Positions 1-12,345 of a stretch of 12,345 nucleotides of DNA are shown one piece after another. The translations under genes and the position numbers were made by a program. Source of the DNA: Blastopirellula sp. (lineage in GTDB: Bacteria > Planctomycetota > Planctomycetia > Pirellulales > Pirellulaceae); contig NVWB01000116.1 in NCBI GenBank assembly GCA_002733575.1, positions 1-12,345 of the forward strand, read 5' to 3'. Every line of letters begins with the position of its first letter. Position 1 is the first letter of the stretch. The notes below the pieces were generated by a model, which was not told where the DNA came from, made no database searches, and saw only the letters and a program-made list of their open reading frames with translations.

Positions 1-80
1 CGTGCGTTCATTTACTCGTGGTAACATAAGGACACCCATCGCGCTAGCCCATTCTCCAGTTTTTTTACCGGACACTATTG

Positions 81-100
81 GGCACAGCCTGACCTACAAA
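81..100. repeat. Solo copy of the short intergenic repeat GGCACAGCCTGACCTACAAA; the same 17-mer core forms an inverted pair at 11935-12037
   Basis: Direct string match of ggcacagcctgacctac to 12021-12037 and, as its reverse complement, to 11935-11956. It lies in the intergenic leader upstream of the nfeD-like gene. Confidence 0.5.
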
Positions 101-298
101 AGTTGAAGATATTGAAGGAAGATTCCATCGATTTTGGGTCTTCCTTCGTTTTTAACTCGAAATGATTTGACAGCCACGAGCTAGGGCCTCATCATACCGT
201 GTAGTAGACACTTTGGATTTTGCGCAATAATTGCCCTTTTGCGGCGAATACCATTGTAGAACTACCCTGTACTATGTCTTTTTTTGAGGTCTCGTCCG

Positions 299-895
299 AT
301 GTTAAACACCTTGTTTCTAGTTTGTGCCATAGGCGCAGGTTCTGTCTTTGTCATGCAGTTTGTCATGGCATTGGTTGGATTTGGGGCTGACGACCTAGAC
401 TTTGGCGATGATATCCCCGATGACATTCCTGACGAGATGCCCGATATGGACCAAGGCTCTGTCATAGATCATGGGTCAACCTGGCTGTTCGGTGTGATCT
501 CATTTCGCACGGTGATTGCCGCGTTTACCTTCTTTGGGCTCACTGGATTGGCCGCTGATACGGCTGATTTAGGGACTCCTGTTTCACTGACGATTGCGAT
601 TGTCTTTGGAATTGCGGCCATGTACTCAGTGCATTGGCTAATGCAGATCCTCTATCGCTTAGGGCACGATGGCACCGTCAGAATTGAAAACTCAATTGGG
701 AAGACCGGCACGGTCTATATACCTATTCCTGCTGATAACTCAGGCAAGGGCAAAATCCAAATGCAGCTGCAAAGCCGAATTGTGGAATACGCCGCGATGA
801 CTGCGAATACTGAAAAGCTGGCAACTGGCACTCCGATTCGCATTGTTAAAGTGGTGAGCCCTACCACGCTTGAAGTTGAAAAAATTGTGCTTTGA
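299..895 (+). CDS. NfeD-like membrane protein (flotillin-associated). N-terminal TM helices, an acidic D/P-rich linker, more TM helices and a C-terminal OB-fold beta domain.
   Basis: The ORF in frame from TTG 284 more likely starts at ATG 299, which has GAGG 8 nt upstream. Hydrophobic segments LFLVCAIGAGSVFVMQFVMALVGF and WLFGVISFRTVIAAFTFFGLTGLAA flank the linker DDLDFGDDIPDDIPDEMPDMDQ. The C-terminal G-rich beta region (GTVRIENSIGKTGTVYIPIP...GKGKIQMQ...GTPIRIV) is typical of NfeD/YuaF proteins. It sits immediately upstream of a flotillin gene, as in the yuaF-floT operon. Confidence 0.7.
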   Translation: MLNTLFLVCAIGAGSVFVMQFVMALVGFGADDLDFGDDIPDDIPDEMPDMDQGSVIDHGSTWLFGVISFRTVIAAFTFFGLTGLAADTADLGTPVSLTIAIVFGIAAMYSVHWLMQILYRLGHDGTVRIENSIGKTGTVYIPIPADNSGKGKIQMQLQSRIVEYAAMTANTEKLATGTPIRIVKVVSPTTLEVEKIVL

Positions 896-1067
896 TATAC
901 ACCACTGTTACGACACCTGTTACCTGCATAATCGGAAGCAGCAGCTAGAAGAAGCCGAGAAACCAGAGAGTTCCTCTACTCCTAGCGATTCGCAATGAGC
1001 TACATGTATGTAGAAAAATCTCTGCGAAACCCTCGCTCCCGACTTGCGTATTATTGGAGAAAAAAGA

Positions 1068-2732
1068 ATGAGTATGCCTCCCCTGTTGTTAGGTTCGTTG
1101 ATGGATGGACCTTGGTTTTGGATTGCCGTGACAGTTGTTGCGGGTGTCATGATCCTTTTTGGATTTTTGATTCTATTGGCCAAGCAATACAAACGTTGTC
1201 CTAGCAACCGTTTGCTAGTGATCTACGGTCGAACCGGAAAAGGTCACGCCTCACGAACCATTCATGGTGGTGCGGCATTCATCGTTCCATTGCTTCAAGA
1301 CTATGCCTATCTCAGTTTGGAACCGATTCAGATCGAGATTCCGCTGCGAGGTGCCTTGTCTTCGGAAAATATCCGCGTCAATGTTCCTAGTGTGTTTACC
1401 GTGGCCATTGGTACAAGTTCTGGCGTTATGGATAACGCCGCGATTCGTTTACTAGGGCTCAGCACGGGCGAGATTCGCAAACAAGCGGAAGAGTTGATCT
1501 TTGGCCAATTGCGTCAAGTGATTGCTTCGATGCGTATCGAACAAATCAACCGTGATCGTGACACATTTTTGAATCACGTACAGTCTTCGCTGGAACCAGA
1601 ATTAAGCAAGATTGGTCTGATATTAATCAATGTGAACATCACCGATATCACCGATGAATCTGGCTACATCGACGCCATCGGGCAAAAAGCAGCATCGCTT
1701 GCCATTCAGGTGGCTCGTGGTGATGTGGCCGATAATGAAAAGATGGGTGAAACTCGCGTTGCGGAAGCTCAACGAGATCAGGCCGTTCAAGTGGCAAACG
1801 CCAACAAAGAGCAATTGATTGGTACCAGGGCTGCCGAACGTGATCAGGCCATTAAAGTGGCTGACATGAAAAAAGAGCAAACCATTGGAGAACGCCAAGC
1901 TGAGTTCGAACGTGAAGCTCAAGTGAAAAACGCCGAGCGAGACAAACGTGTGCGGATCGCGGAAGCCGATGCAGCCGCGATTGAAGGTGAAAACGAATCG
2001 CAAGCCAAAGTGGCCGCTTCGCAGGCCGAACTTGCAGTGAAACGTGCGGAAGCTTACGAAGTGGGTGAAACCCGCAAGAAGGAAGCAGAAGCTGCCGTTC
2101 TGGAAGCGCAAAACCGGGCGATGGCCAAAGCGGCGTTAGCCGAAGCCGAACGTGTGGAAGCCGAACAGCGTGCCTTGTTAGAAGCCCCTGCGAAAGCGGA
2201 TAAAGCCAGGGTCGAAGTCGACGCCTCGGCAGAAGCTTCGAAACGACGTATCTTGGCTCAAGCTGAAGCCGATGCCAATTTCGCCAAGTTAGATGCCGAA
2301 GCCCGAGGTCAATATGAAATTCTGGCCAAAAAGGGTGCAGGTCTTCGGGAAATCGTCAATGCTTGTGGTGGCTCGAAAGAAGCGTTCCAATTGTTACTGC
2401 TTGAACATTTAGACACCTTGGCCGAAACTTCCGCCAAAGCGATTTCGAATATCAAATTTGATAAAATCGTGGTCTGGGAAAATGGTAGCGGTAAAGATGG
2501 TCGCTCCAACACTGCCGACTTCCTGTCCGGCATGGCAAAAACTTTGCCTCCGATGATGCAAGTGATGAAGGACATCGGCGGTATCGAACTGCCCGAAGCC
2601 TTAATCAAATTCACCGAAGATGGCCCGGCTGCATTGGTCGATAGCAGTGAGCCTAGTGCATCTTCGGAAGATGATGAAACCATCGTCGCTGCTGAAACTG
2701 GCGACCAAGATGAAGCTCCAGAGTCAGCATAG
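1068..2732 (+). CDS. Flotillin-like SPFH/band-7 family protein (FloT/YqiK-like) with an N-terminal membrane anchor, a long E/A/K/R-rich coiled coil and an acidic C-terminal tail
   Basis: The long ORF in frame from 1044 probably starts at ATG 1068, with GGAGAA upstream. The N-terminal TM helix is WFWIAVTVVAGVMILFGFLILLA. The SPFH core includes KRCPSNRLLVIYGRTGKG...RVNVPSVFTVAIG. About 250 aa of EA-repeat coiled coil (AEAQRDQAVQVANANKEQ, AEADAAAIEGENESQAKV...) follows. A rho-independent terminator lies downstream. Confidence 0.85.
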   Translation: MSMPPLLLGSLMDGPWFWIAVTVVAGVMILFGFLILLAKQYKRCPSNRLLVIYGRTGKGHASRTIHGGAAFIVPLLQDYAYLSLEPIQIEIPLRGALSSENIRVNVPSVFTVAIGTSSGVMDNAAIRLLGLSTGEIRKQAEELIFGQLRQVIASMRIEQINRDRDTFLNHVQSSLEPELSKIGLILINVNITDITDESGYIDAIGQKAASLAIQVARGDVADNEKMGETRVAEAQRDQAVQVANANKEQLIGTRAAERDQAIKVADMKKEQTIGERQAEFEREAQVKNAERDKRVRIAEADAAAIEGENESQAKVAASQAELAVKRAEAYEVGETRKKEAEAAVLEAQNRAMAKAALAEAERVEAEQRALLEAPAKADKARVEVDASAEASKRRILAQAEADANFAKLDAEARGQYEILAKKGAGLREIVNACGGSKEAFQLLLLEHLDTLAETSAKAISNIKFDKIVVWENGSGKDGRSNTADFLSGMAKTLPPMMQVMKDIGGIELPEALIKFTEDGPAALVDSSEPSASSEDDETIVAAETGDQDEAPESA

Positions 2733-2770
2733 TCTGAATTTAGGGCACGATTCTTTAATTTCAAAAACTC

Positions 2771-2806
2771 AAAAGGCGGGTGAATTAGTTCATCCGCCTT
2801 TTTTTG
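2771..2806 (+). terminator. Rho-independent terminator of the nfeD-flotillin operon
   Basis: Stem GGCGGGTGAA/TTCATCCGCC (10 bp, one G-U wobble) with loop TTAG, followed by TTTTTTT. It lies 39 nt after the flotillin stop. Confidence 0.75.
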
Positions 2807-2852
2807 TGCCTGCTGTGCATTTTTAAAATCGATATTCTGATATAAGTTTTCT

Positions 2853-2945
2853 GTTGTCCCGGAGGGACAATAGCATGTAGCCAGGGGATTCATCCCCTGG
2901 AATCAAATTACTCAAAGTTCCAAAAGCCCCAGCGGGGCGATATCG
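2853..2945. repeat. Left arm of a ~95-bp imperfect terminal inverted repeat containing three hairpins (GTCCCggaGGGAC, CCAGGGGAttcaTCCCCTGG, GCCCCagcGGGGC)
   Basis: Reverse-complementing 3488-3582 and aligning it to 2853-2945 gives the same three hairpins in the same order with about 70% identity. An example is gtcccggagggacaatagcatgtagccaggggattcatcccctggaa against gtcccgatagggacgacatcgtgtagctaggggatttatcccctggaag. Confidence 0.6.
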
Positions 2946-3118
2946 AGAAAATTGAGTAGTTTTGCCGTCGGAGAACAAATTTCATCAGAGAATAATCTTT
3001 GATTGGTGATACTTCTCGGTGAACTCCACCACTTTCAACTTTCTACCCGATAATAATGTCGTCATCAAAACCTACATCGAACTTCAAAGCATCATCATAA
3101 ACCCCTTCAAAAGATGTC

Positions 3119-3300
3119 TCACGCAAAGCCGCAAAGGCGCCAAGGAAGGAAAGAAGAAGTTTTTAACACAGAGGCACAGAGAGAGCAGAGGATTGGGTTT
3201 CAGACTTCATCTTGTCAAAAAAAAGATTCTCACGCGAAGCCTCGAAGTCGCGAAGAGGTTTTGCTTCAAACTTTCTTGGCGCCTTTGCGTCTTTGCGTGA
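3119..3300. repeat. Nested 23-bp inverted repeat (3119-3141 and 3278-3300, 22/23 complementary) enclosing an AG-rich core of about 137 nt; also a 14-bp direct repeat tctcacgcaaagcc/tctcacgcgaagcc
   Basis: tcacgcaaagccgcaaaggcgcc at 3119-3141 against ggcgcctttgcgtctttgcgtga at 3278-3300, which is its reverse complement with one mismatch. The direct repeat copies are at 3116-3130 and 3227-3240. Confidence 0.55.
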
Positions 3301-3487
3301 TTTATTTTTCATTTACTTAAGGAGTATTTATGACACACAAGAATCAACGACCGGCCCTAAGTAGAATATGTCATTAGGACAAGAAAACACGGTGCTTATA
3401 CATTTCCAGAGACCGTAGCAAGAAGTGTTTGCGGTGGAGTTCAGCGAGAAGTGTTGATTTGTAGCCTTATCAACGGCTCATCAAGCA

Positions 3488-3582
3488 ATGTCGCCCCTGG
3501 CCGGGGCTTAGACGATTTAGGGCATTCACTTCCAGGGGATAAATCCCCTAGCTACACGATGTCGTCCCTATCGGGACTGAAA
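3488..3582. repeat. Right arm of the ~95-bp imperfect terminal inverted repeat (GCCCCtggccGGGGC, CCAGGGGAtaaaTCCCCTAG, GTCCCtatcGGGAC), mirrored relative to 2853-2945
   Basis: See the left arm. The hairpins appear in reversed order and orientation, so the two arms are inverted copies about 540 bp apart. Together they bound a noncoding element of about 730 bp. Confidence 0.6.
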
Positions 3583-3719
3583 AAATGGCAGAAATAGTAA
3601 CGAGTAAAACCATATCCTTCGTGGATATTCGGCACACGTTATTTAAAAATGCTCTAGCTTCGCCCTAGAGTCCTTTCGAGAAAGGTAGGGTCTGTCTTAT
3701 AATCGAGGGTTCCTGATAC

Positions 3720-4355
3720 GTGCCAACATTGCCACGTGCAACCCTACAATTACCTAATAGAGATCAGTCTGTGCTGGAAATCATCCACTATCCGCATCCT
3801 ACACTGCGATATAAATCAAAACCGATCAAACGGGTCGACGCCAACTTGCGCCAGATGGTCGAAGAAATGTTTGACCTGATGTATGAGCACAAAGGCGTAG
3901 GGCTGGCCGCCAATCAAGTTGATTTGCCGCTTCGACTGTTCGTGGTCAACGAAACGGCCGATCCGGATCAAAGAGACCAAGAGCACGTCTTTATTAATCC
4001 GATCATTAGTCGGCCCAAAGGGAACGAAGAGGCCCAAGAGGGCTGTCTGAGTTTGCCAGAAGTGTATGCCGATGTAAAACGGCCTGCCGAGTTCCATTTC
4101 TCTGCTTACAATCTCAAAGGCGAGAAAATCGAAGGACAATTCGATGGGTTCTTTGGCCGTATCTTACAACACGAAACCGACCACTTAGATGGCATCATGT
4201 TTATCGATAAAGTGATGCCCAATGACTTGGTGGAAATCGAGCATGAGATCGAAGAATTTGAAGTCGATTTCAAAAGCAAGCGAGATGTCAACGCAATTCC
4301 ATCCGATGAAGAAATCGCCCAACGATTGTCCGAAATTGAAGCAACGTATTGTTAG
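3720..4355 (+). CDS. def: Peptide deformylase
   Basis: All three PDF motifs are present: GVGLAANQV (motif 1), EGCLS (motif 2) and QHETDHLDG (HExxH, motif 3). The start is ambiguous among GTG 3720, TTG 3729 and GTG 3771. The last gives an N-terminus MLEIIHYPHPTLR that is typical of PDF, so the true start is probably 3771. There is a C-terminal acidic extension of about 35 aa. Confidence 0.9.
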   Translation: MPTLPRATLQLPNRDQSVLEIIHYPHPTLRYKSKPIKRVDANLRQMVEEMFDLMYEHKGVGLAANQVDLPLRLFVVNETADPDQRDQEHVFINPIISRPKGNEEAQEGCLSLPEVYADVKRPAEFHFSAYNLKGEKIEGQFDGFFGRILQHETDHLDGIMFIDKVMPNDLVEIEHEIEEFEVDFKSKRDVNAIPSDEEIAQRLSEIEATYC

Positions 4356-4418
4356 CCTTGTTTCCTGAGCCACGACAATCAATTTTCCTTCACCGATGTT
4401 TTACCAAAGAGATCCAAT

Positions 4419-5396
4419 ATGCGAATCGTCATGATGGGGACCGGGCCATTTGCGGTTCCTACGTTTGAAAAATTGATTGCCAGTCAGCATGAAGTGTTGT
4501 GTTTGATCACACAACCAGATCGTCCTACGCGCGGCAAGCGGAAGCCGCCAGTGAATCCGATGCGACAAGCGGCAGAGAAAAACGGCATCACGGTTCACTC
4601 TCCGCAAAGCATCAACAACGAAGAAGCATCTCAGTTGTTGACCGCCTGCGAAGCTGACTTATATGTGGTCTGCGATTACGGACAGATTCTATCCAATGAC
4701 ATCTTGGCGTTGGCGAAGTACGGCGGTATCAACCTGCATGGGTCTCTGCTGCCCAAGTATCGCGGTTCGGCCCCAGTACAGTGGGCCATCTACAACGGCG
4801 ACGCCACCACCGGCGTGTCTGTGATTCACATGACACCCAAGCTCGATGCTGGCCCTTGCTTGAAAGTGGTTGAGACACCGATTGATGCAAATGAAAATCA
4901 ACTAGAACTCGAACATCGATTGTCCACACTCGGTGTCGCTGCCGTGTTCGATGCGATTGATCAGCTAGAACAATCCAACGCAGGTGAAGCACTTGGCGAA
5001 GTGCAAGATAAAGCATTGGCCACCAGGGCTCCTCGATTAAAAAAATCAGATGGCGAGATCGATTGGTCCAAATCAGCCAAACAAATCTACGATCAATTTC
5101 GGGCCTTTCAACCATGGCCAGGCTGCTTCACCCACTGGCTGCGTGAAGGCGAAGAACCGCTGCGACTGATCGTCAAACAGGTTCGATATGAGCAAATTGA
5201 GACCGAATTCCCAGACTCTGAGGTCGGTAAAACCGTGGCGGCAGATGATCAAGGAATTCAGATTACTTGCAAAACGGGGGTCATAATCCTCGAAGAAGTA
5301 CAGCCTGCCGGAAAACGGGCCATGAAAGTTGAAGAACTTCTGCGGGGCTATTCGATCTTGCCAGGCATGCCATTTGGACCGCAACCTGTTTCATAA
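4419..5396 (+). CDS. fmt: Methionyl-tRNA formyltransferase
   Basis: The N-terminus MRIVMMGTGPFAVPTFEKL is Fmt-like. The formyltransferase core HGSLLPKYRGSAPVQWAIYNGDATTGVSV is present. The gene lies immediately downstream of def, the classic def-fmt arrangement. Confidence 0.9.
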   Translation: MRIVMMGTGPFAVPTFEKLIASQHEVLCLITQPDRPTRGKRKPPVNPMRQAAEKNGITVHSPQSINNEEASQLLTACEADLYVVCDYGQILSNDILALAKYGGINLHGSLLPKYRGSAPVQWAIYNGDATTGVSVIHMTPKLDAGPCLKVVETPIDANENQLELEHRLSTLGVAAVFDAIDQLEQSNAGEALGEVQDKALATRAPRLKKSDGEIDWSKSAKQIYDQFRAFQPWPGCFTHWLREGEEPLRLIVKQVRYEQIETEFPDSEVGKTVAADDQGIQITCKTGVIILEEVQPAGKRAMKVEELLRGYSILPGMPFGPQPVS

Positions 5397-5552
5397 CAGC
5401 AGGTTGCGACTGATACTGGTCCACTCTTTGGTTCCTCCAGTTCTCAAAAAGCGGCCAAATGCTCATTAATACCTCTCGCCGAAACTCCCCATCATTTACT
5501 ACGATAAGGAGAACTGTATCTGAAGACCAAGGATGGTTTCAAGGAACACGGA

Positions 5553-5785
5553 TCATGGATGTCTGGAACATAATGCTTTTTGCTGCGGCCGTGTATGTGG
5601 CGGTCATTTCCCTCGTGCGAATGATGCGAGCTCGTCAAAAGGAATTGATTAAGCGATTTCGTAAAGAATTTGATCGAGAGCAGCAGGCCATCGCCGAGCG
5701 CATTACCCTGAAAAGACGTAAAGAACGTGAAGAAAAAAGAACCCAAATGTTTGATGATCTGGTGCAAAAGCGAGACGCCGCGTAA
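5553..5785 (+). CDS. Small hypothetical protein (~76 aa) with one TM helix and a highly charged K/R/E-rich C-terminal tail
   Basis: ATG 5553 has AAGGAA 8 nt upstream. The TM segment is IMLFAAAVYVAVISLV, followed by RMMRARQKELIKRFRKEFDREQQ...RRKEREEKR. The ORF is open from 5459, but nothing supports the earlier start. No recognisable family. Confidence 0.4.
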
Positions 5786-5891
5786 CGATCAACTGCTGAA
5801 TCAATCGACCTGATAAGCTCTTGGGATTCGTTTCTGAATCCACAAACACTGTGCCCCCAAACTCCCGCTGCTGTGAAAGTCTAAACTGCTG

Positions 5892-7316
5892 ATGCCGAAA
5901 CAATTGTATATCGAAACGGTTGGATGCCAAATGAACATGCTCGATAGCGAACTTGTCGTCGCAAGTTTGCGAAAGCAGGGCTATCAACTGACCGACTCTA
6001 TTGAAGAAGCCGACGCGTTACTCTTCAATACGTGCAGCGTGCGTGAGCAAGCCGAAAACAAAACCTACAGCCACCTGGGTAAATTACGTCAATTCAAAAT
6101 TGATAACCCCGAAAAAGTCATCGGCGTGATGGGCTGCATGGCCCAAAACCATCAAAAGAAAATCTTTCAGCGTGCCCCGTATGTTGACCTGATTGTTGGC
6201 CCTGGCCAGTTGCATCAGATCCCTGAATTGATCAAAAAAATTGAACAGGGTGAAGGGCGACAGATTGAAGTCTCGCTCGGTCGCCGCGATGGTGGTCGCG
6301 AAGAAATTATTCGCAGCCACGAAAGTTTTGATCCACTACGCGACCCTGAAATGCGACCGACCCCGTTCCAAGCTTTTATTCGCATTCAAATTGGTTGCGA
6401 CAAATTTTGCACCTATTGCATTGTCCCAAGTGTTCGCGGACCAGAACAAGGCCGCAACCCGCACGACATCATTGCCGAAGCCAAACATCTGGCATTGCAC
6501 GACACGGTCGAAATCACACTGATTGGTCAAACCGTCAACAGCTACAAAGCGGTTGATCAAGATGGCAAGCTGTGGAGAATGTCGGACCTGCTAGGCGAGC
6601 TGCAAGAGATCGATGGCATTCAACGTATCAAGTTTGTGACCAACTATCCGAACGACATGACCGATGACTTGCTGTGTGCCGTGCGCGATCTCAGCAAGGT
6701 TTCGCCCTATTTGCATGTGCCGGCCCAAAGTGGATCGGAGCGTATTCTCAAGCGGATGAAACGTGGCTACACAGTGGCCCAATATCGAGACATGATGCAC
6801 CGCATTCGAGAAACGGTTCCCGGTGCCGCAGTCAGCAGTGACTTTATCGTCGGCTTCTGTGGCGAGACCGACGAAGAGTTTCAAATGACTGTCGACTTGG
6901 TGGAAGAATGTCGCTTCAAAAACAGCTTCATCTTTAAGTACAGCGAACGCGAAGGAACCAAAGGGGCCGAGATGTACGATGATGACATCCCCCATCATGT
7001 TAAAAAGGAAAGAAACAATCGGCTGCTGGAAATTCAAAATCAAATTAGCCTCGAAGACAATCAGGACATGATAGGGCACACCGTTGATGTGTTGATTGAG
7101 GGCATCAGCAAAACGGCCATCAGAAAAGGGGAAGACACCGGCCCCAGCGTCCAATTAACTGGAAGAACCCATTGCGACCGCATCGTGGTTTGCGAAGGAA
7201 ACCCCCGCCAAATTGGGCATATTCTACCGATGACCATCTACGAAACATCGCCCCATACGCTGTTTGGTGAAGTGGTGACCGAAGCCTGTGGACCGGAGCT
7301 ATTTGGCTTGGGTTAA
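5892..7316 (+). CDS. miaB: tRNA (i6A37) methylthiotransferase, MiaB-type radical SAM MTTase
   Basis: The N-terminal MTTase cysteine triad is present (TVGCQMN, NTCSVREQAE, VMGCMAQ). The radical-SAM motif is GCDKFCTYC. A C-terminal TRAM-like region follows. The GCQMN and NTCxVRE signature fits MiaB better than RimO or MtaB. Confidence 0.8.
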   Translation: MPKQLYIETVGCQMNMLDSELVVASLRKQGYQLTDSIEEADALLFNTCSVREQAENKTYSHLGKLRQFKIDNPEKVIGVMGCMAQNHQKKIFQRAPYVDLIVGPGQLHQIPELIKKIEQGEGRQIEVSLGRRDGGREEIIRSHESFDPLRDPEMRPTPFQAFIRIQIGCDKFCTYCIVPSVRGPEQGRNPHDIIAEAKHLALHDTVEITLIGQTVNSYKAVDQDGKLWRMSDLLGELQEIDGIQRIKFVTNYPNDMTDDLLCAVRDLSKVSPYLHVPAQSGSERILKRMKRGYTVAQYRDMMHRIRETVPGAAVSSDFIVGFCGETDEEFQMTVDLVEECRFKNSFIFKYSEREGTKGAEMYDDDIPHHVKKERNNRLLEIQNQISLEDNQDMIGHTVDVLIEGISKTAIRKGEDTGPSVQLTGRTHCDRIVVCEGNPRQIGHILPMTIYETSPHTLFGEVVTEACGPELFGLG

Positions 7317-7452
7317 TAGCCAATCCTGCAATTTTGACTGGCCTGATTGGACTCTTTCGCCCCGGCATGCTATTCTCAATACATTGAAAAGACCCTCACC
7401 TTTGTGTGCGAATGCTCGCACCTCACCATGTTATCTATAGGAGATTCTATTT

Positions 7453-8079
7453 ATGCGAACTGTAATTAGCAGTTGCCTGTTGCTCTTGGTTTTGATTTCT
7501 TCCAACGCACTGGCTGCCGAAAAAGGTTGGAAAAAACTGACCGATGGTAAAACCTATGACGGTTGGAAAATCAACGAGAACAAAGAAACTTGGTCGATCC
7601 AAGATGGTGCGTTTGTTGCCAAAGGCGACCGCAGCCACTTGTTCTATGTCGGCGATGATAGACCGTTTGTGAACTTTGAGTTCAAAGCCCAAGTCATGAC
7701 CCGCAAAAACAGCAACGGCGGAATTTACTTCCACACCAAATATCAAGACGCCGGCTGGCCCAAACACGGTTTTGAAGCCCAAGTCAACAACACCCACCAT
7801 GACCGTAAAAAAACGGCCAGTGTTTATGCCGTCAAAGACGTAATGGATGATGCACCTGCCAAAGATGACGTTTGGTTTGAGTACTACATCAAAGTGGTTG
7901 GCAAAACCGTAGTGATCAAAATCGACGGCAAAGTGGCCAACAAATACACCGAACCCGAAGGCACCAAAGCCGGCAAAGATTTCACCCGAGTCTTCAACAA
8001 AGGCACCTTCGCCCTCCAAGGCCACGATCCTGGAAGTGTTGTGTACTTCAAAGACATCGAAGTCAAACGCTTGCCGTAA
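7453..8079 (+). CDS. Secreted DUF1080 (3-keto-disaccharide hydrolase-like, LamG-type beta-sandwich) domain protein
   Basis: AGGAGA RBS. The signal peptide is MRTVISSCLLLLVLISSNALAA. The sequence then reads GWKKLTDGKTYDGWK...WSIQDGAF...GGIYFH...EAQV...ALQGHDPGSVVYFKDIEVK, a typical DUF1080 pattern. A terminator hairpin follows 28 nt after the stop. Confidence 0.85.
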   Translation: MRTVISSCLLLLVLISSNALAAEKGWKKLTDGKTYDGWKINENKETWSIQDGAFVAKGDRSHLFYVGDDRPFVNFEFKAQVMTRKNSNGGIYFHTKYQDAGWPKHGFEAQVNNTHHDRKKTASVYAVKDVMDDAPAKDDVWFEYYIKVVGKTVVIKIDGKVANKYTEPEGTKAGKDFTRVFNKGTFALQGHDPGSVVYFKDIEVKRLP

Positions 8080-8106
8080 GCAAATAGCCAATGGCAACCA
8101 ATTAAT

Positions 8107-8147
8107 ATAAAAGAGCCCGCTCTGAATCAGAGCGGGCTCTTTTTTTG
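8107..8147. terminator. Bidirectional rho-independent terminator, copy 1 of 3
   Basis: ATAAAAGAGCCCGCTCTGA/atc/AGAGCGGGCTCTTTTTTT. A perfect GC-rich stem of about 13 bp is flanked by an A-tract upstream and a T-tract downstream. Confidence 0.85.
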
Positions 8148-8193
8148 TTATCTTGTTTTTAGTAAAGGTCGCTTTATATTTCGTCAGTGTCAC
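8107..8193. repeat. Direct-repeat block 1: the terminator plus about 45 bp ending in GTCAGTGTCAC. Block 2 at 8783-8869 is in register exactly 676 bp away. A shorter copy (terminator plus TATC...GGTCGCTT) sits at 10691-10758.
   Basis: Ungapped alignment of 8107-8193 to 8783-8869 gives about 95% identity over the hairpin and about 74% over the 53 bp that follow. The shared ends are ttttgtcagtgtcac and tttcgtcagtgtcac. The block-1 segment tatcttg...ggtcgcttt resembles tatcatc...ggtcgctta after the third terminator. Confidence 0.7.
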
Positions 8194-8283
8194 TCATCGC
8201 GTGTGGTCAAAATACTCATCTGGAAGCCACGTAGGGTAGATAAATCCATATTCATCCACCTTGGAATCACGATTCAACCAAAA

Positions 8284-8298
8284 TTAACCATTGGTTAA
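8284..8298. promoter_or_regulatory. Perfect 15-bp palindrome TTAACCATTGGTTAA (copy 1), candidate dimeric-protein binding site
   Basis: The sequence is exactly its own reverse complement. It recurs identically at 8331-8345 and in degenerate form at 8470-8482. Confidence 0.5.
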
Positions 8299-8330
8299 AT
8301 TTCCCGAAAAACCCCTCTACTGCGGCGGAC

Positions 8331-8345
8331 TTAACCATTGGTTAA
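8331..8345. promoter_or_regulatory. Perfect 15-bp palindrome TTAACCATTGGTTAA (copy 2)
   Basis: Identical to copy 1, centre-to-centre spacing 47 bp. A T-tract follows. Confidence 0.5.
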
Positions 8346-8469
8346 TTTTTGATGACCGTTTTTATCGGTTACCCCGTTGTTGGTCGAATTTTTGTGTTGT
8401 TGTAACTCCCCGTCTCAAACGACTTATGGCAAGTGAAAATCCTTGCTTTCTTGGATTCAACCAAAACAT

Positions 8470-8482
8470 AACCTTTGGTTAA
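8470..8482. promoter_or_regulatory. Degenerate third copy (AACCTTTGGTTAA) of the TTAACCATTGGTTAA palindrome
   Basis: Matches the palindrome with one central substitution. A GGTTAA half-site repeats 14 nt downstream. Confidence 0.35.
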
Positions 8483-8782
8483 ATATATGACCGCGGTTAA
8501 ATCGCATCTTCACACATTTCAAACCGGTCAAAACACTCAGCTTTCCCCCCGTTGGAAATCAAATCTCGGGTAGCCCAAGTTGCAAGCAACTGGCGGCATG
8601 ATTTGTCATAAATCGGTTCCATAGCTCTGGTCCAATTTACAAAACATCTGTAAGGCACGCCGGATATTCTGTAGGGTACGCTATTGCGTACCAGCCATTA
8701 TAAAACCGCATTATAATCTCACGCCCAGGCCCAATTTCAAACCCCAATTGCACTTCACACTGGCGAAGCCAGTGGCACCCAA

Positions 8783-8822
8783 ATAAAAGAGCCCGCTCTG
8801 ATACAGAGCGGGCTCTTTTTTT
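8783..8822. terminator. Bidirectional rho-independent terminator, copy 2 of 3
   Basis: ATAAAAGAGCCCGCTCTG/ata/CAGAGCGGGCTCTTTTTTT. The stem is the same as copy 1 and only the loop differs. Confidence 0.8.
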
Positions 8823-8869
8823 GTAATCTGATTTGAAGTATCGATTGTGTTAAATTTTGTCAGTGTCAC
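8783..8869. repeat. Direct-repeat block 2 (terminator plus ~45 bp ending GTCAGTGTCAC). The motif recurs inverted at 8929-8942 (GTGAACACTGACAA).
   Basis: See block 1. The inverted third copy of TGTCAGTGT(C/T)CAC, together with 8859-8870, flanks a roughly 58-bp AT-rich stretch immediately upstream of the DUF262 gene. Confidence 0.65.
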
Positions 8870-9024
8870 CAGTCAACTTAAATAATTTGCTATTATTCTA
8901 TCTACACCTCTGTTATTATTCTTGCTCCGTGAACACTGACAAGGTAGTATTCAATATCCCCTCCTAGACTTAATGGAATTGCTAGATAGATATTTCATAA
9001 ATAATCCATAACATAAAGAATCAC

Positions 9025-10113
9025 ATGGCAACTAGTTTAAAATCAATCCGTGACGACGAAGAAGAATTACTGTACGAGGCAGATGAGTCGGAACTGCCTC
9101 CTTCCGATATCGTTGCTTTTAATGAGCAGAGGTCATGTGCTGATTTATTGCGAATGTACCAGTCAGAACAACTCATCATTCAGCCCGATTTTCAACGTGA
9201 TATTGTTTGGCCTAATCCTGCACAAACGCGGTTTATAGATTCGTTAGTGAAGGAATTGCCGATCCCAAGTATGTGCATCAGTTTTGATTACAACACAACA
9301 GAAAGACTTGTAATTGATGGGCTACAACGTATGTCAACAATCATCAAATTCCTCTCTGATGACACTTGGAAATTATCTACAGTTTCTGATGTTGACAAAC
9401 GAATATCAGGCAGGACTAATGATTACATCAAGAAGAATCACAGTTCAATTTATGATCGAATTCAAAACCTTACTATTCCTGTAACAGTACTTCGATGTGA
9501 CTATAAAAAGGAATCTCACATGAGGTATTTGTTTACAATATTTCACCGGCTCAATACTGGTGGAAGCAAGTTATCAAATCAGGAGATTCGAAATTGCATC
9601 TACAGTGGAAGTCTAAATGATTTGTTAAAAGAGTGTGTTGAAAATAAAGATTATCGTCACCTACTCAATCTCTCAGCCAAAGGAACATATCGATTTTCTC
9701 ACGAAGAGCTAGTGTTAAGGTTCTTTGCATTTACGGATAAGTTTTCGGATTATGATGGAAAGTTGTCCTCATACTTAAACGACTATATGAATCATCATCG
9801 CCATGCCGATTCGAAATTCCTCAGGAAGAAGAAAAAACAATTTTTAGAGATGATCAAAATATGCTATGAAAAACTGACTGAAGGTGCAGCTCTTCCTAAG
9901 GGAAGTAAAGCAACTACTGAAGCTATCATGGTAGGGATAGGTAGAAATTTAAGTACATTAAGGTCTACTAGGTCGGCTACAGTTCAGAAACGCATGAAAG
10001 AATTGCTTAATACTGATGAGTTTCACCCAGACAACCTAAAAAATGCTTTGACGTCAAAAGATAAAATGATATCTAGGCTGAGGAGTGCTGTAAAGGTTTT
10101 AGGTGGCAAATGA
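9025..10113 (+). CDS. DUF262 domain protein (ParB/Srx-fold, GmrSD N-terminal-like nuclease/NTPase domain), 362 aa
   Basis: DUF262 signature blocks in the expected order: IQPDFQRDIVW (FQRxxVW), QTRFIDSLVKELPIP (LIDSI...PIP), VIDGLQRMSTI (DGQQR box) and IFHRLNTGGSKLSNQEIRN (FxRLN.GG..L). The N-terminus is acidic. The gene is strongly AT-rich, with 30-40% GC in sampled 60-bp stretches against about 52% in a host-gene sample. Its stop overlaps the downstream start as ATGA. Confidence 0.85.
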   Translation: MATSLKSIRDDEEELLYEADESELPPSDIVAFNEQRSCADLLRMYQSEQLIIQPDFQRDIVWPNPAQTRFIDSLVKELPIPSMCISFDYNTTERLVIDGLQRMSTIIKFLSDDTWKLSTVSDVDKRISGRTNDYIKKNHSSIYDRIQNLTIPVTVLRCDYKKESHMRYLFTIFHRLNTGGSKLSNQEIRNCIYSGSLNDLLKECVENKDYRHLLNLSAKGTYRFSHEELVLRFFAFTDKFSDYDGKLSSYLNDYMNHHRHADSKFLRKKKKQFLEMIKICYEKLTEGAALPKGSKATTEAIMVGIGRNLSTLRSTRSATVQKRMKELLNTDEFHPDNLKNALTSKDKMISRLRSAVKVLGGK

Positions 10114-10607
10114 TAAGCAAACAAGAAATCGAACGCGATCTAATTAAATTAAAAAGGCTATATGAAAAAGCACCAGATACTCATACTAGTGTGTTCTATT
10201 CGAAGCTTGCAATTCTTGAACTGAGTAGTTGGATCGAATTAAGTTTTGATAAAATAGTAAAACGGTCCATTAATAACAAACTGACATTATGTAAGTATCA
10301 AGCCCTAGTTGAATCGAGTATTAAGAGGAACAACAGTTTTTCGTACAAAAACCATTTTATTCCGATGTTACAAAAAATATCAGGGTTGGTGGCTTGTGAA
10401 GACATCGAGACGAAAATCAAATCCAGCGGTAAGTTTGAACAGCTCACAAACGAATTAACGATCTTAGTAGAAGAACGAAATAAAGCCGCACATGTTGGAG
10501 TTCGACATACAACATACGATGCACCATCTGTTACGATACAAAGATTCAAAGATCTGTATCCGACGATCAAGGATATGTATACATGGTCAGTAAGGTACTG
10601 TTCCTAA
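10110..10607 (+). CDS. Small all-alpha protein with an Rx4H motif (EERNKAAH), candidate HEPN-like RNase partner of the DUF262 protein (MAE_28990/MAE_18760-like)
   Basis: The ATG overlaps the upstream stop by 4 bp (ATGA), implying translational coupling. The sequence is rich in helix-forming residues (L/E/K). The only catalytic-looking feature is the HEPN-type R-x4-H at residues ~123-128. AT-rich like its partner. The family assignment rests on the motif plus the known genomic association of DUF262 genes with MAE_28990/MAE_18760 HEPN genes and was not verified by search. Confidence 0.5.
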   Translation: MISKQEIERDLIKLKRLYEKAPDTHTSVFYSKLAILELSSWIELSFDKIVKRSINNKLTLCKYQALVESSIKRNNSFSYKNHFIPMLQKISGLVACEDIETKIKSSGKFEQLTNELTILVEERNKAAHVGVRHTTYDAPSVTIQRFKDLYPTIKDMYTWSVRYCS

Positions 10608-10690
10608 CTCCAGATTGGAGAGGCAAGATTTTGCAACACGGCTCATATGTCTCTACCGAAAACAATTCAACTATGATTCGTCGATGTGAC

Positions 10691-10733
10691 AAAATAAAAA
10701 GAGCCCACTCTGTAACAGAGCGGGCTCTTTTTT
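10691..10733. terminator. Bidirectional rho-independent terminator, copy 3 of 3, serving the HEPN-like gene (+) and the Gfo/Idh/MocA gene (-)
   Basis: AAAATAAAAAGAGCCCACTCTG/taa/CAGAGCGGGCTCTTTTTT. The stem has one mismatch (A opposite C) relative to copies 1 and 2. It lies 27 nt beyond the stop of the minus-strand oxidoreductase gene. Confidence 0.8.
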
Positions 10734-10759
10734 ATCATCTAATTTTCAACTTCGGTCGC

Positions 10760-11902
10760 TTACGCGATGTCGACCCATTTGCGTTCGGCGGCGCTTTCTA
10801 GTACGGCGTCGCAAACTTTGGCGGTTTCTAGTGCGGTTTTGAAACTTGGTTCGCATACGGTGCCATCTTCTAGACTCTTCAAGAAGTCGGCCACTTGATG
10901 GACGAAGCTGTGTTCATACCCGATGCTTAATCCTGGAACCCACCAGTGATCCATGTACGGCATGTCTCCATCGGAAACATGTACTTTGTGCCAACCACGG
11001 ACGAGCGAGTCGTCGCGGTGATCGAAGTACTCTAAGTGGTTCAAGTCGTGCAAGTCCCAGCGGATCGAACCATGTTCGCCGTTGATTTCTAGCGTGTACA
11101 ACGCCTTGTGTCCACGAGCATAACGCGTCGACTCAAACAAGCCCAACGATCCATTGGCAAAATGGCAATGGAATACACAAGCGTCATCGATGGTGACCTT
11201 CTCCATCTTGCCGGTCAATTGATGCATTCGCTCTTTGATGAAGGTCTCGGTCATGGCTGATACGTCAACGATGCCGCCGTTAAGCCACATGGCCGTGTCG
11301 ATACAATGGGCCAACAGGTCACCTGTTACGCCAGAGCCTGCGGCTTCCGCGTCTAACCGCCAGAGTGCTTCGCCACCTTGAGGCAAGTCAGCGTTGATCG
11401 TCCAGTCTTGCAGGAAGTTCGACCGGTAATGAAAGATGCGACCTAGGCGGCCTTCGTCAATCAATTTTTTGGCCAACGAGACGGCCGGAATTCGGCGGTA
11501 GTTGTACCACACGGTATTCGCAACGCCCGCTTCTTCAACCGCGGTAACCATTTCTGCGCCTTCGGCAGTGGTGCGTGCGATTGGCTTTTCGCACAACACC
11601 ATCTTGCCTGCTTTGGCAGCCGCGATGGCAATTTCGTTATGCGTGTTGTTCGGCGTGCAGATATCAATGGCGTCGATATCGTCGCGTGCGACCAGTGCTT
11701 TCCAATCGGTCTCGTAAGACTCGTAGCCCCACTTGGCAGCAAAGTCTTTCGTCTTCTCTTCGTTACGACCACAAACGGCCTTCAGCACTGGGGTGTATTC
11801 CAGTTCTGGAAAGAAGTCAGGGGCTCGCTTGTAACCGTTGGAATGCGTACGGCCCATGAAGCCGTAGCCAACCAGTCCAATGTTCAGCGGTTTTTTTGCC
11901 AT
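10760..11902 (-). CDS. Gfo/Idh/MocA family NAD(P)-dependent oxidoreductase
   Basis: The N-terminal Rossmann fold is [19 protein letters not shown], and the EKP motif appears in MVLCEKPIA. At 380 aa the length is typical. GGAG lies 11-14 nt upstream of the ATG on the minus strand. Confidence 0.9.
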
Positions 11903-11934
11903 GGTAATCTATCTCCAATGTTGAGTTTTTATTT

Positions 11935-12037
11935 GTAGGTCAGGCTGTGCCTGACGATGTGTAAATGACTGATGGTGTTCGATGCTAAAACTAATTCGAC
12001 GTGAATTAAGTTCGACGTCAGGCACAGCCTGACCTAC
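11935..12037. repeat. Perfect 22-bp inverted repeat (GTAGGTCAGGCTGTGCCTGACG at 11935-11956 and CGTCAGGCACAGCCTGACCTAC at 12016-12037) enclosing a 59-bp AT-rich loop; REP-like element or terminator between two minus-strand genes
   Basis: Exact reverse-complement match. The loop contains the internal direct repeat TTCGACGT twice. The same 17-mer also occurs at 81-97. The element starts 5 nt beyond the stop of the upstream minus-strand ORF (12043). Confidence 0.6.
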
Positions 12038-12042
12038 GGCTT

Positions 12043-12345
12043 TTAGTTCCAGCCGCAGTTATCACGAACTTTGATCATCGCGGCCAAGATGGTGTTTGCC
12101 GTGTTTGGATCTTCAATCACAGAGTTAGGAAACATACAGCCATCCCAGCAGATGTGTTTCATGCCACGGTCTGCTCCACCTTCAAGCCAGTATTTACTGC
12201 AAGCGGCAATGTCTAGTTTACCGTTGGGGTCATCGGCCAGACAGTGACGCCCGGTCTTATCGTGAGCCCCTGTTCCGTGAACGGAACCATCGTTTTGGGC
12301 CACGTGAAAATCGATGGTCCAAGGACGCAAGGCATCGGTCATGGT
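12043..12345 (-). CDS. C-terminal fragment (about 100 aa) of a Cys/Gly/Asp-rich hypothetical protein; the gene continues beyond the window edge
   Basis: The frame is open to the window end and the stop TAA is at 12043-12045. It contains NDGSVHG and several Cys residues and might be DUF1559-like, but the fragment is too short to assign. Confidence 0.45.

Follow-up and report, generated by a model that had tools for sequence, protein, structure and literature searches.

Between a flotillin-like gene and def, on a contig from an NCBI metagenome-assembled genome (MAG) labeled Blastopirellula sp., lies a degenerate palindrome of ~740 bp (2845..3587, assigned to no strand). The whole contig of 12,345 bp was analyzed and is referred to here as the window. 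We consider it likely that this element is a gene-less doublet of repetitive extragenic palindromic (REP)-type units placed "head-to-head," that each unit is a copy of the motif cataloged in Rfam as Acido-Lenti-1 (RF01687), and that the distance between them resembles that of a REPtron, in which a Y1 tnpA gene lies between or next to REPs. Because it is gene-less, the doublet is regarded as non-autonomous. It is most likely a relic of mobile DNA rather than a regulator of def. As an element it is ordinary; what is new, and modestly so, is the link that it reveals between Acido-Lenti-1 and Y1 transposases of subclass 1.2. The searchable literature on Acido-Lenti-1, on REP-associated tyrosine transposases (RAYTs) and REPINs, and on TnpAY1 yielded no publication that connects the Rfam motif with a transposase. 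A broader proposal, on which our judgment is evenly balanced, is that Acido-Lenti-1 is not a small RNA (sRNA) but serves a second REP-like system, built on an IS200-class Y1 enzyme, as its DNA substrate, and that the window holds a decayed home locus of that system.

Two Outward-Facing Units Within a Long Palindrome

The core of the left unit (2854..2900, minus strand) points outward to the left and that of the right unit (3532..3579, plus strand) outward to the right. The left central hairpin (2881-2900) reads CCAGGGGA-TGAA-TCCCCTGG on the minus strand and forms a fully paired stem of 8 bp with a loop of 4 nt, while the right central hairpin (3532-3551, plus strand) reads CCAGGGGA-TAAA-TCCCCTAG and is a degenerate stem of 8 bp with a C.A mismatch at its second pair. 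By the criteria of Quentin 2018 and Di Nocera 2013, REPs of the GTAG type carry GT[AG]G 0-2 nt 5' of the hairpin foot, on a paired basal stem of 7-20 nt with a loop of 2-5 nt and a G/C-rich base, and the stems in the window have these proportions. On the left, GTAG at 2877-2880 of the plus strand (CTAC on the minus strand) directly abuts the stem; on the right, CTAC at 3552-3555 (plus strand) adjoins the stem and supplies the same foot on the other strand. Both feet thus lie on the outside of the doublet. Each central hairpin is accompanied by an outer hairpin, hp3 (2854-2870 on the left; 3564-3577, plus strand, on the right), and by an inner accessory hairpin, hp0, which was taken from the fold on the left (2926..2938, minus strand; GCCCC-AGC-GGGGC as read on the plus strand) and reads GCCCC-TGGCC-GGGGC on the right (3493..3507, plus strand). 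A conserved A-rich tail beyond the outer hairpins (CAGAAAAC / CTGAAAAA) lengthens the unit by ~8 nt. Folded as DNA, the left arm reaches a minimum free energy (MFE) of -20.8 kcal/mol (z = -5.0); the right arm is weaker (z = -1.8) because of the mismatch in its central stem. The same mismatch suggests that the doublet is probably decaying.

Covariance models recognize both units. Against RF01687, the left arm (2855-2900, minus strand) scores 37.2 bits (E = 1.6e-5), which reaches the gathering score of 37, and the right arm (3532-3578, plus strand) scores 24.3 bits (E = 0.004), which is under it. Our own model, R1, built from 25 gap-free instances of the unit, gives 64.2 bits (E = 8e-15) for the left unit and 40.8 bits (E = 1e-8) for the right, with no further match elsewhere in the window.

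The palindrome extends well beyond these hairpins. An inverted-repeat search returned outer arms of 40 nt at 2863-2902 / 3530-3569 (85% complementary, 627 nt apart) and two nested pairs around the same center, at 3011-3030 / 3433-3452 (95%) and 3110-3148 / 3271-3309 (85%). The best ungapped inverted-repeat score within 2700-3750 is 24, as against 11.3 +/- 1.6 (maximum 16) in 200 dinucleotide shuffles, and the entire 746 nt folds as a single long hairpin (DNA MFE -134.5, z = -9.4). A preliminary description of this DNA had reported long imperfect inverted repeats of about 70% identity at this place, each arm composed of three hairpins, and these observations were borne out: the stretches 2854-2938 and 3493-3577 are inverted copies, folding of each arm yields the three hairpins, and alignment of the left half with the reverse complement of the right gives a mean column identity of 72%, with the matches gathered mainly in the outer ~95 nt and a single inner block.

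From this architecture the preliminary description had proposed a miniature inverted-repeat transposable element (MITE) or a decayed insertion sequence (IS). In its classical form such an element has terminal inverted repeats to which a DDE-type transposase binds, and its insertion duplicates the target site. The long imperfect repeats, the non-coding interior and the MITE-like size all speak for such an element, and the proposal was sound insofar as these are repeats of the mobile-DNA type and not ordinary spacer. A MITE of the terminal-inverted-repeat type, however, has a direct repeat of fixed length at its borders, and reading of the sequence disclosed no target-site duplication there, as had been remarked at the outset; the flanks AGTTTTCTGTT / CTGAAAAAATG are themselves inverted and continue the inverted repeat. 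Enzymes of the Y1 HUH family make no target duplications. Moreover, neither a DDE transposase nor any other shared gene was found near the 26 loci that carry the conserved core of the unit (described below), where the only recurrently linked gene encodes a Y1 HUH enzyme, and what is conserved in the arms is a hairpin with a tetranucleotide foot and not a linear terminal sequence. We therefore regard a classical MITE as highly improbable and read the arms as GTAG-footed, REP-type hairpins. Terminal inverted repeats of the TIRYT type with a GGGGWSAS motif (PMC3733652) were also considered, and their consensus does not fit the central hairpin.

Occurrence and Anatomy of the Unit in Other Genomes

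In a scan of one genome per species, the exact 23-nt core of the unit, CCAGGGGATNNATCCCCTNGCTA, was recovered from 26 contigs belonging to MAGs of about 10 phyla. Its sources include Planctomycetota, Lentisphaeria, Chloroflexota, Acidimicrobiia, Acidobacteria and Cytophagales, as well as Flavobacteriaceae, Leptospiraceae, cyanobacteria, Parabeggiatoa and others. Some genomes contributed 3-4 contigs with the exact core, and others hold arrays of at least six units, among them a Cytophagales MAG in whose array the orientation alternates. The unit occurs in intergenic DNA in both orientations, as solo copies, as inverted doublets and as arrays, and outward-facing pairs recur (e.g., in loci L015 and L023). 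Relaxed matching added clusters of units whose stems carry compensatory changes, such as GGGAAT/ATTCCC, GGGGTT/AACCCC and CAGAGG/CCTCTG. A scan of metagenome contigs for the linker specific to the window returned three contigs, with units of 47-52 bits on RF01687, arranged as outward-facing doublets only ~105 nt apart. Separately, locus L015 gave a weak partial match to HEARO, the IscB-associated omega RNA (4056-4212, minus strand); at 29 bits and E = 0.039 it falls short of the gathering score of 83, it is truncated by the contig end, and it is probably noise.

Model R1 found 85 matches in 230 kb of retrieved loci, of which two fall in the window; L042, an unrelated Blastopirellula locus that served as control, has none. 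Among these matches 98.8% of cells are paired, a percentage inflated by an alignment that was fitted to R1; the diversity of stems, with 26 central and ~20 outer variants, is not inflated in this way. The preliminary description had called for a covariation test, and the outcome is positive, with compensatory changes on both sides in 12 of 13 pairs and a covariation score of 0.535, as opposed to 0.132 for shuffled alignments and, with the partners slid, no more than 0.10 (0.021-0.087). G-U accounts for just 3 of 968 paired cells, leaving stems that are almost purely Watson-Crick, as expected if both DNA strands matter. Several features are invariant or nearly so. The stem is closed by CC...GG and carries a TGAA (43 instances) or TAAA (17) loop; CTA directly follows it in ~78 of the 85 matches, and a C comes next in 56 of 80, so that the opposite strand reads GTAG followed by a GC-rich hairpin. 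The accessory hairpins keep their distances as well: the distance between the start of the central hairpin and hp3 is 30-34 nt in 55 of 71 instances (3% background; 23-fold enriched), and hp0 lies 35-45 nt upstream in 44 of 71 (7% of random positions; 9-fold enriched). We also observed copies with a foot on both sides (TAGCCAGGGGATTAATCCCCTGGCTA) in a Leptospiraceae MAG (L009 1623-1648) and a Cytophagales MAG (L010 5177-5202); these lack the accessory hairpins and resemble the double-foot REPs that Quentin et al. report for subclass 2.4.

The same data bear on whether the arms act as structured RNA, either as two divergent small RNAs or as a regulator of def-fmt, formed as a long-range helix when transcription reads through. 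The preliminary description had raised a structured RNA as an alternative, and part of it holds, since the left arm does match Acido-Lenti-1 at the Rfam gathering score. The strong covariation of the unit, the grading of the motif as a likely RNA by Weinberg et al. (PMC2864571) and the capacity of the whole region to form a long helix argue in the same direction. Nevertheless, the window carries one copy on each strand, and in other genomes the orientation of the unit varies, arrays of it occur, and its position bears no constant relationship to genes. The stems almost lack G-U pairing, and the mismatched pair of the right arm, which reads C.A in the Rfam orientation, becomes a wobble only on the opposite strand. 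The unit is, furthermore, tightly linked to the gene of a single-strand DNA transposase. Within the window, a strong intrinsic terminator, the hairpin and T-run of the flotillin gene (2771-2802), precedes the element, a promoter-like site for def (3676-3703; TCGAGA-16-TATAAT, 10 of 12 matches) follows it, and there is no promoter-like site that would drive either arm outward. An attenuator for def-fmt, as once suggested, is unlikely because that good promoter-like site lies downstream of the element. On balance the strands, the arrays, the lack of G-U pairs and the Y1 link favor an element that works at the level of DNA, and a structured RNA appears improbable to us, though less so than the MITE.

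A Y1 Transposase Gene Flanked by the Unit

An all-against-all BLASTP of the open reading frames (ORFs) around the 26 core loci produced no recurrent family except ORFs that read through the repeat. In three of these loci (L007, L023, and L025), however, ORFs beside the unit belong to PF01797 (Y1_Tnp; E 2e-12 to 2e-6). A homologue search returned >5600 proteins of ~150 aa, many of them named RayT or IS200/IS605 transposase by their sources and including members from Pirellulaceae and other Planctomycetes. Seven more independent Y1 gene loci (L032, L035, L036, and L038-L041) are bordered on both sides by the three-hairpin unit, whose stems are lineage-specific, so that the unit flanks a PF01797 gene in 10 independent loci, all outside the genome of the window. 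Of 9 loci, 8 have their closest upstream unit directed away from the gene, and 7 have their closest downstream unit so directed. Spacings across intact genes, measured from center to center, are 570, 604, 631, and 690 nt (in L035, L039, L038, and L041), and that of the window is 632 nt. A scan of viral_contigs for the Y1 family gave 30 pattern matches, none of which was confirmed.

The linked proteins are 144-165 aa long, each is found on 1-2 contigs, and they are 59-72% identical across about 10 phyla (mean column identity 77%). Among 20 diverse members, Y115, Q119, H122, and H123 of the motif Y---Q--HH are invariant and the HuH motif, DHVH, is conserved. In the literature, TnpA_Y1 subclass 1.2 is characterized by Y---Q--HH (Quentin et al., 2018, PMC6006769), and with this motif, the HuH motif, a length of ~150 aa and a low copy number, judged from the number of contigs per protein, the linked enzyme falls within that subclass. 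Scores against NCBIfam transpos_IS200 are 78-85 bits, with a cut-off of 55, and the closest solved structures are the TnpA proteins of ISDra2 and IS608 only, not TnpA_REP of E. coli. An Acidimicrobiia MAG contains two decayed copies of the gene, at L023 234-766 and L025 1917-2590, one truncated after ~60 codons between two outward-facing units and the other frameshifted, which establishes that decay of the gene inside its flanks does occur. Taken together, and by analogy with related enzymes, the unit is probably the substrate of an IS200-like Y1 enzyme of subclass 1.2 whose gene it flanks.

How such a system might work is suggested by the literature on IS200/IS605 TnpA and TnpA_REP, from which the following mechanism was inferred. 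Single-stranded DNA exposed at the replication fork would allow the hairpin to fold; the Y1 enzyme would bind this hairpin together with its tetranucleotide foot, and would cut and rejoin nearby without target duplication. Gene-less units, such as those in the window, could then be mobilized in trans.

Interior of the Element and Origin of the Doublet

The interior holds palindromic sequence of its own. The middle inverted repeat comprises a left arm at 3011..3030 (plus strand; ACTTCTCGGTGAACTCCACC) and a right arm at 3433..3452 (plus strand; GGTGGAGTTCAGCGAGAAGT), each of 20 nt; neither this pair nor the remaining interior has a counterpart in any retrieved locus by blastn, the sole match being a second repeat family. 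This second small palindromic repeat, TCTCACGCAAAG-NCGCAAAGG, is unrelated to the REP-type unit and is present as three arms (3117+, 3228+, and 3299-). Arm A occupies 3117..3148 on the plus strand (TCTCACGCAAAGCCGCAAAGGCGCCAAGG), and arms B (3228-3258, plus strand) and C (3271-3301, minus strand) form a tight hairpin of 74 nt at 3228..3301 (fold -14.5 kcal/mol, z = -2.2). Look-alike hairpin elements occur in a Planctomycetota MAG (L008 4581-4702) and in a high-GC metagenome contig (L031 1580-1712). No Rfam family matches the second repeat, and the Rhodopirellula-1 motif of Weinberg, considered as the identity of the inner CACGCAAAG repeat, is unrelated in sequence. The interior had been described as lacking a credible ORF, and we agree: its ORFs of 93, 68, 50, 49, 48, and 51 aa overlap repeats, and none has a Pfam match. 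A strong Shine-Dalgarno sequence (AAGGAG, 3319-3324) does stand 5 nt upstream of an ATG at 3330, which opens a mini-ORF of 15 codons (MTHKNQRPALSRICH) with its stop at 3375-3377; this could be chance.

Several observations weigh against reading the element as a REP-type doublet of REPtron-like spacing. The two units have the inverted orientation of a REPIN or bacterial interspersed mosaic element, yet their spacer of 629 nt (2901-3531) is too long for one, given that consecutive REPs in such structures are separated by <=150 nt (Quentin 2018) or 20-100 bp (Di Nocera 2013), the latter being the range published for REP dimers (PMC3733652). It also far exceeds that of the gene-less doublets found elsewhere, which measure 36-223 nt from center to center. 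The window contains no Y1 gene between or next to its units and no remnant of one, and a hidden Markov model of 100+ family members scores <0 against the six-frame translation of the interior. The linked enzyme is not a class-2 RAYT or TnpA_REP, as it lacks the Y---NP motif and scores 21.7 on NCBIfam REP_Tyr_transpos against a cut-off of 80. Evidence on copy number and on the Y1 gene comes from other genomes, the MAG of the window being represented by one contig, and covariation alone does not tell single-stranded DNA from RNA.

The long spacer leads to the question of origin, for which two options are apparent within our preferred reading. The locus may be a degraded REPtron, in which a subclass 1.2 Y1 gene once lay between the units and has been deleted or overwritten. 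The spacing favors this option, for 632 nt falls inside the 570-690 nt of intact gene loci and well outside the range of gene-less doublets, and the truncated or frameshifted Y1 genes between or beside units in L023 and L025 demonstrate that decay in situ happens. The interior, on the other hand, shows no protein trace in any frame and no DNA similarity to any retrieved Y1 gene; a search for a transposase pseudogene by tblastn, using three Y1 fragments and a chimera, gave noise only. In addition, ~200 nt of the interior consist of the other repeat family, so that the present spacing may be coincidental, and the interior is palindromic, which is unlike a gene remnant. Alternatively, the center of a doublet may have been filled by other palindromic repeats, an origin that is favored because the second repeat is demonstrably present and the interior is palindromic. 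We hold the degraded REPtron to be a possible but rather doubtful variant of the gene-less doublet.

Genomic Setting

The flotillin-like gene (protein PHS04553.1) ends at 2732 and def starts at 3720, and the inverted-repeat element fills the gap between the flotillin terminator and the promoter-like site of def. Weak Rfam matches at 2701-2852 (L20_leader, 30 bits against 58.7; sraA; STnc240; P31) reflect the flotillin terminator only and were set aside. The closest relatives of the def product are from Pirellulales, at 59-64% identity. Flotillin-def synteny is absent in Blastopirellula JC732, and the nearest def relatives yield no orthologous spacer for an empty-site comparison.

An assembly artifact, such as a fold-back chimera, was considered and rejected: the arms have diverged from each other, and in an independent assembly the center lies within the overlap of two contigs. 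In this ENA assembly of the same sample, scaffold_12012 corresponds to window 45-3240 (99.84% identity) and scaffold_727 to window 3223-12345 (100%), and the two break at the center of the palindrome, where they share 18 identical nt (window 3223-3240). A Logan unitig, moreover, starts at 3555, directly after the central hairpin of the right unit. Both the break and the unitig start could reflect repetition of these sequences in the sample.

Elsewhere in the window, a low-GC island (8100-10700; GC 0.33-0.41 vs. ~0.48 elsewhere) contains two overlapping ORFs, taken from the gene table of the identical ENA contig, at 9025-10113 (PF03235 GmrSD_N) and 10110-10607 (PF18735 HEPN_RiboL-PSP, a weak match). 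This looks like a horizontally acquired defense gene pair.

Implications

For the locus itself, the oddly long spacer between flotillin and def is explained as inert or parasitic repeat DNA and not as a regulator of the essential def-fmt operon, and annotators are cautioned against calling an sRNA gene here. More broadly, a concrete function is proposed for an Rfam family that has had none assigned since 2010, and candidate DNA substrates are supplied for the Y1 transposases of subclass 1.2, which have been described as devoid of recognizable flanking structures (PMC6006769). Should Acido-Lenti-1 be the substrate of these enzymes, it would define a REP-like system distinct from those of class-2 RAYTs, possibly of independent origin, with a three-hairpin recognition module whose 23-nt core and enzyme are almost unchanged over about 10 phyla. 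Such conservation suggests that the system often spreads horizontally or else performs a strongly selected function for the host. If confirmed, this would mean that HUH transposases of the IS200 class, and not class-2 RAYTs alone, have undergone a REP-like domestication, here with a near-identical core over about ten phyla that is unusual for REPs.

Comparison With Known Systems

GTAG-footed REPs, head-to-head (HH) dimers, clusters and REPtrons are all established, including in the Planctomycetes-Verrucomicrobia-Chlamydiae (PVC) superphylum (PMC3733652), and TnpA_REP is known to require both the foot and the folded hairpin of single-stranded DNA (PMC6006769; PMC8266576). Like the REP, REPIN and REPtron systems of RAYTs in E. 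coli, Pseudomonas and Stenotrophomonas, the unit has a GC-rich hairpin, a short loop and a GTAG foot; it occurs as singletons, as inverted "HH" and "TT" dimers and in intergenic clusters; and, as in REPtrons, the same units are inverted around a small HUH-Y1 gene with no target duplication. It departs from these systems in having two extra hairpins at fixed distances and an IS200-like enzyme of the Y---Q--HH type, where class-2 RAYTs carry Y---NP. Pairs of REP and RAYT are, furthermore, described as lineage-specific and vertically inherited, whereas the 23-nt core of this unit is identical across about 10 phyla, and the doublet in the window is far wider than the REP dimers of 20-100 bp.

The likeness to RF01687 (Weinberg et al., 2010) resides in the two-hairpin consensus and its conserved GGCUA linker. 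Rfam lists that family as an sRNA with no assigned function that is confined to Acidobacteria and Lentisphaerae, but the unit described here is present in many more phyla and comes with a third hairpin, in inverted pairs, in arrays and beside a transposase gene, all of which point to a DNA element. With TnpA_Y1 subclass 1.2 as published (PMC6006769), the linked ~150-aa proteins share the Y---Q--HH and HuH motifs, a position near the IS200 transposases and a low copy number; what differs is that flanking three-hairpin units are found in 10 of 10 loci and that the members here reside in Pirellulaceae, Acidimicrobiia and Acidobacteria.

Finally, IS200/IS605 elements and their gene-less derivatives, the palindrome-associated transposable elements (PATEs), employ the same enzyme superfamily, to which the nearest structures, ISDra2 and IS608 TnpA, belong. 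They too possess subterminal hairpins, at whose foot a tetranucleotide serves as guide, and a single-strand mechanism without target duplication, which would apply to the unit by analogy. The ends of IS200/IS605, however, consist of hairpins that share one strand and one orientation, while the two ends formed by the unit are inverted, and it is the whole IS that is multicopy there, while here the hairpin units far outnumber the Y1 gene. The system of unit and Y1 enzyme looks like a REPtron and is arranged like one, yet falls outside the class-2 RAYT systems.

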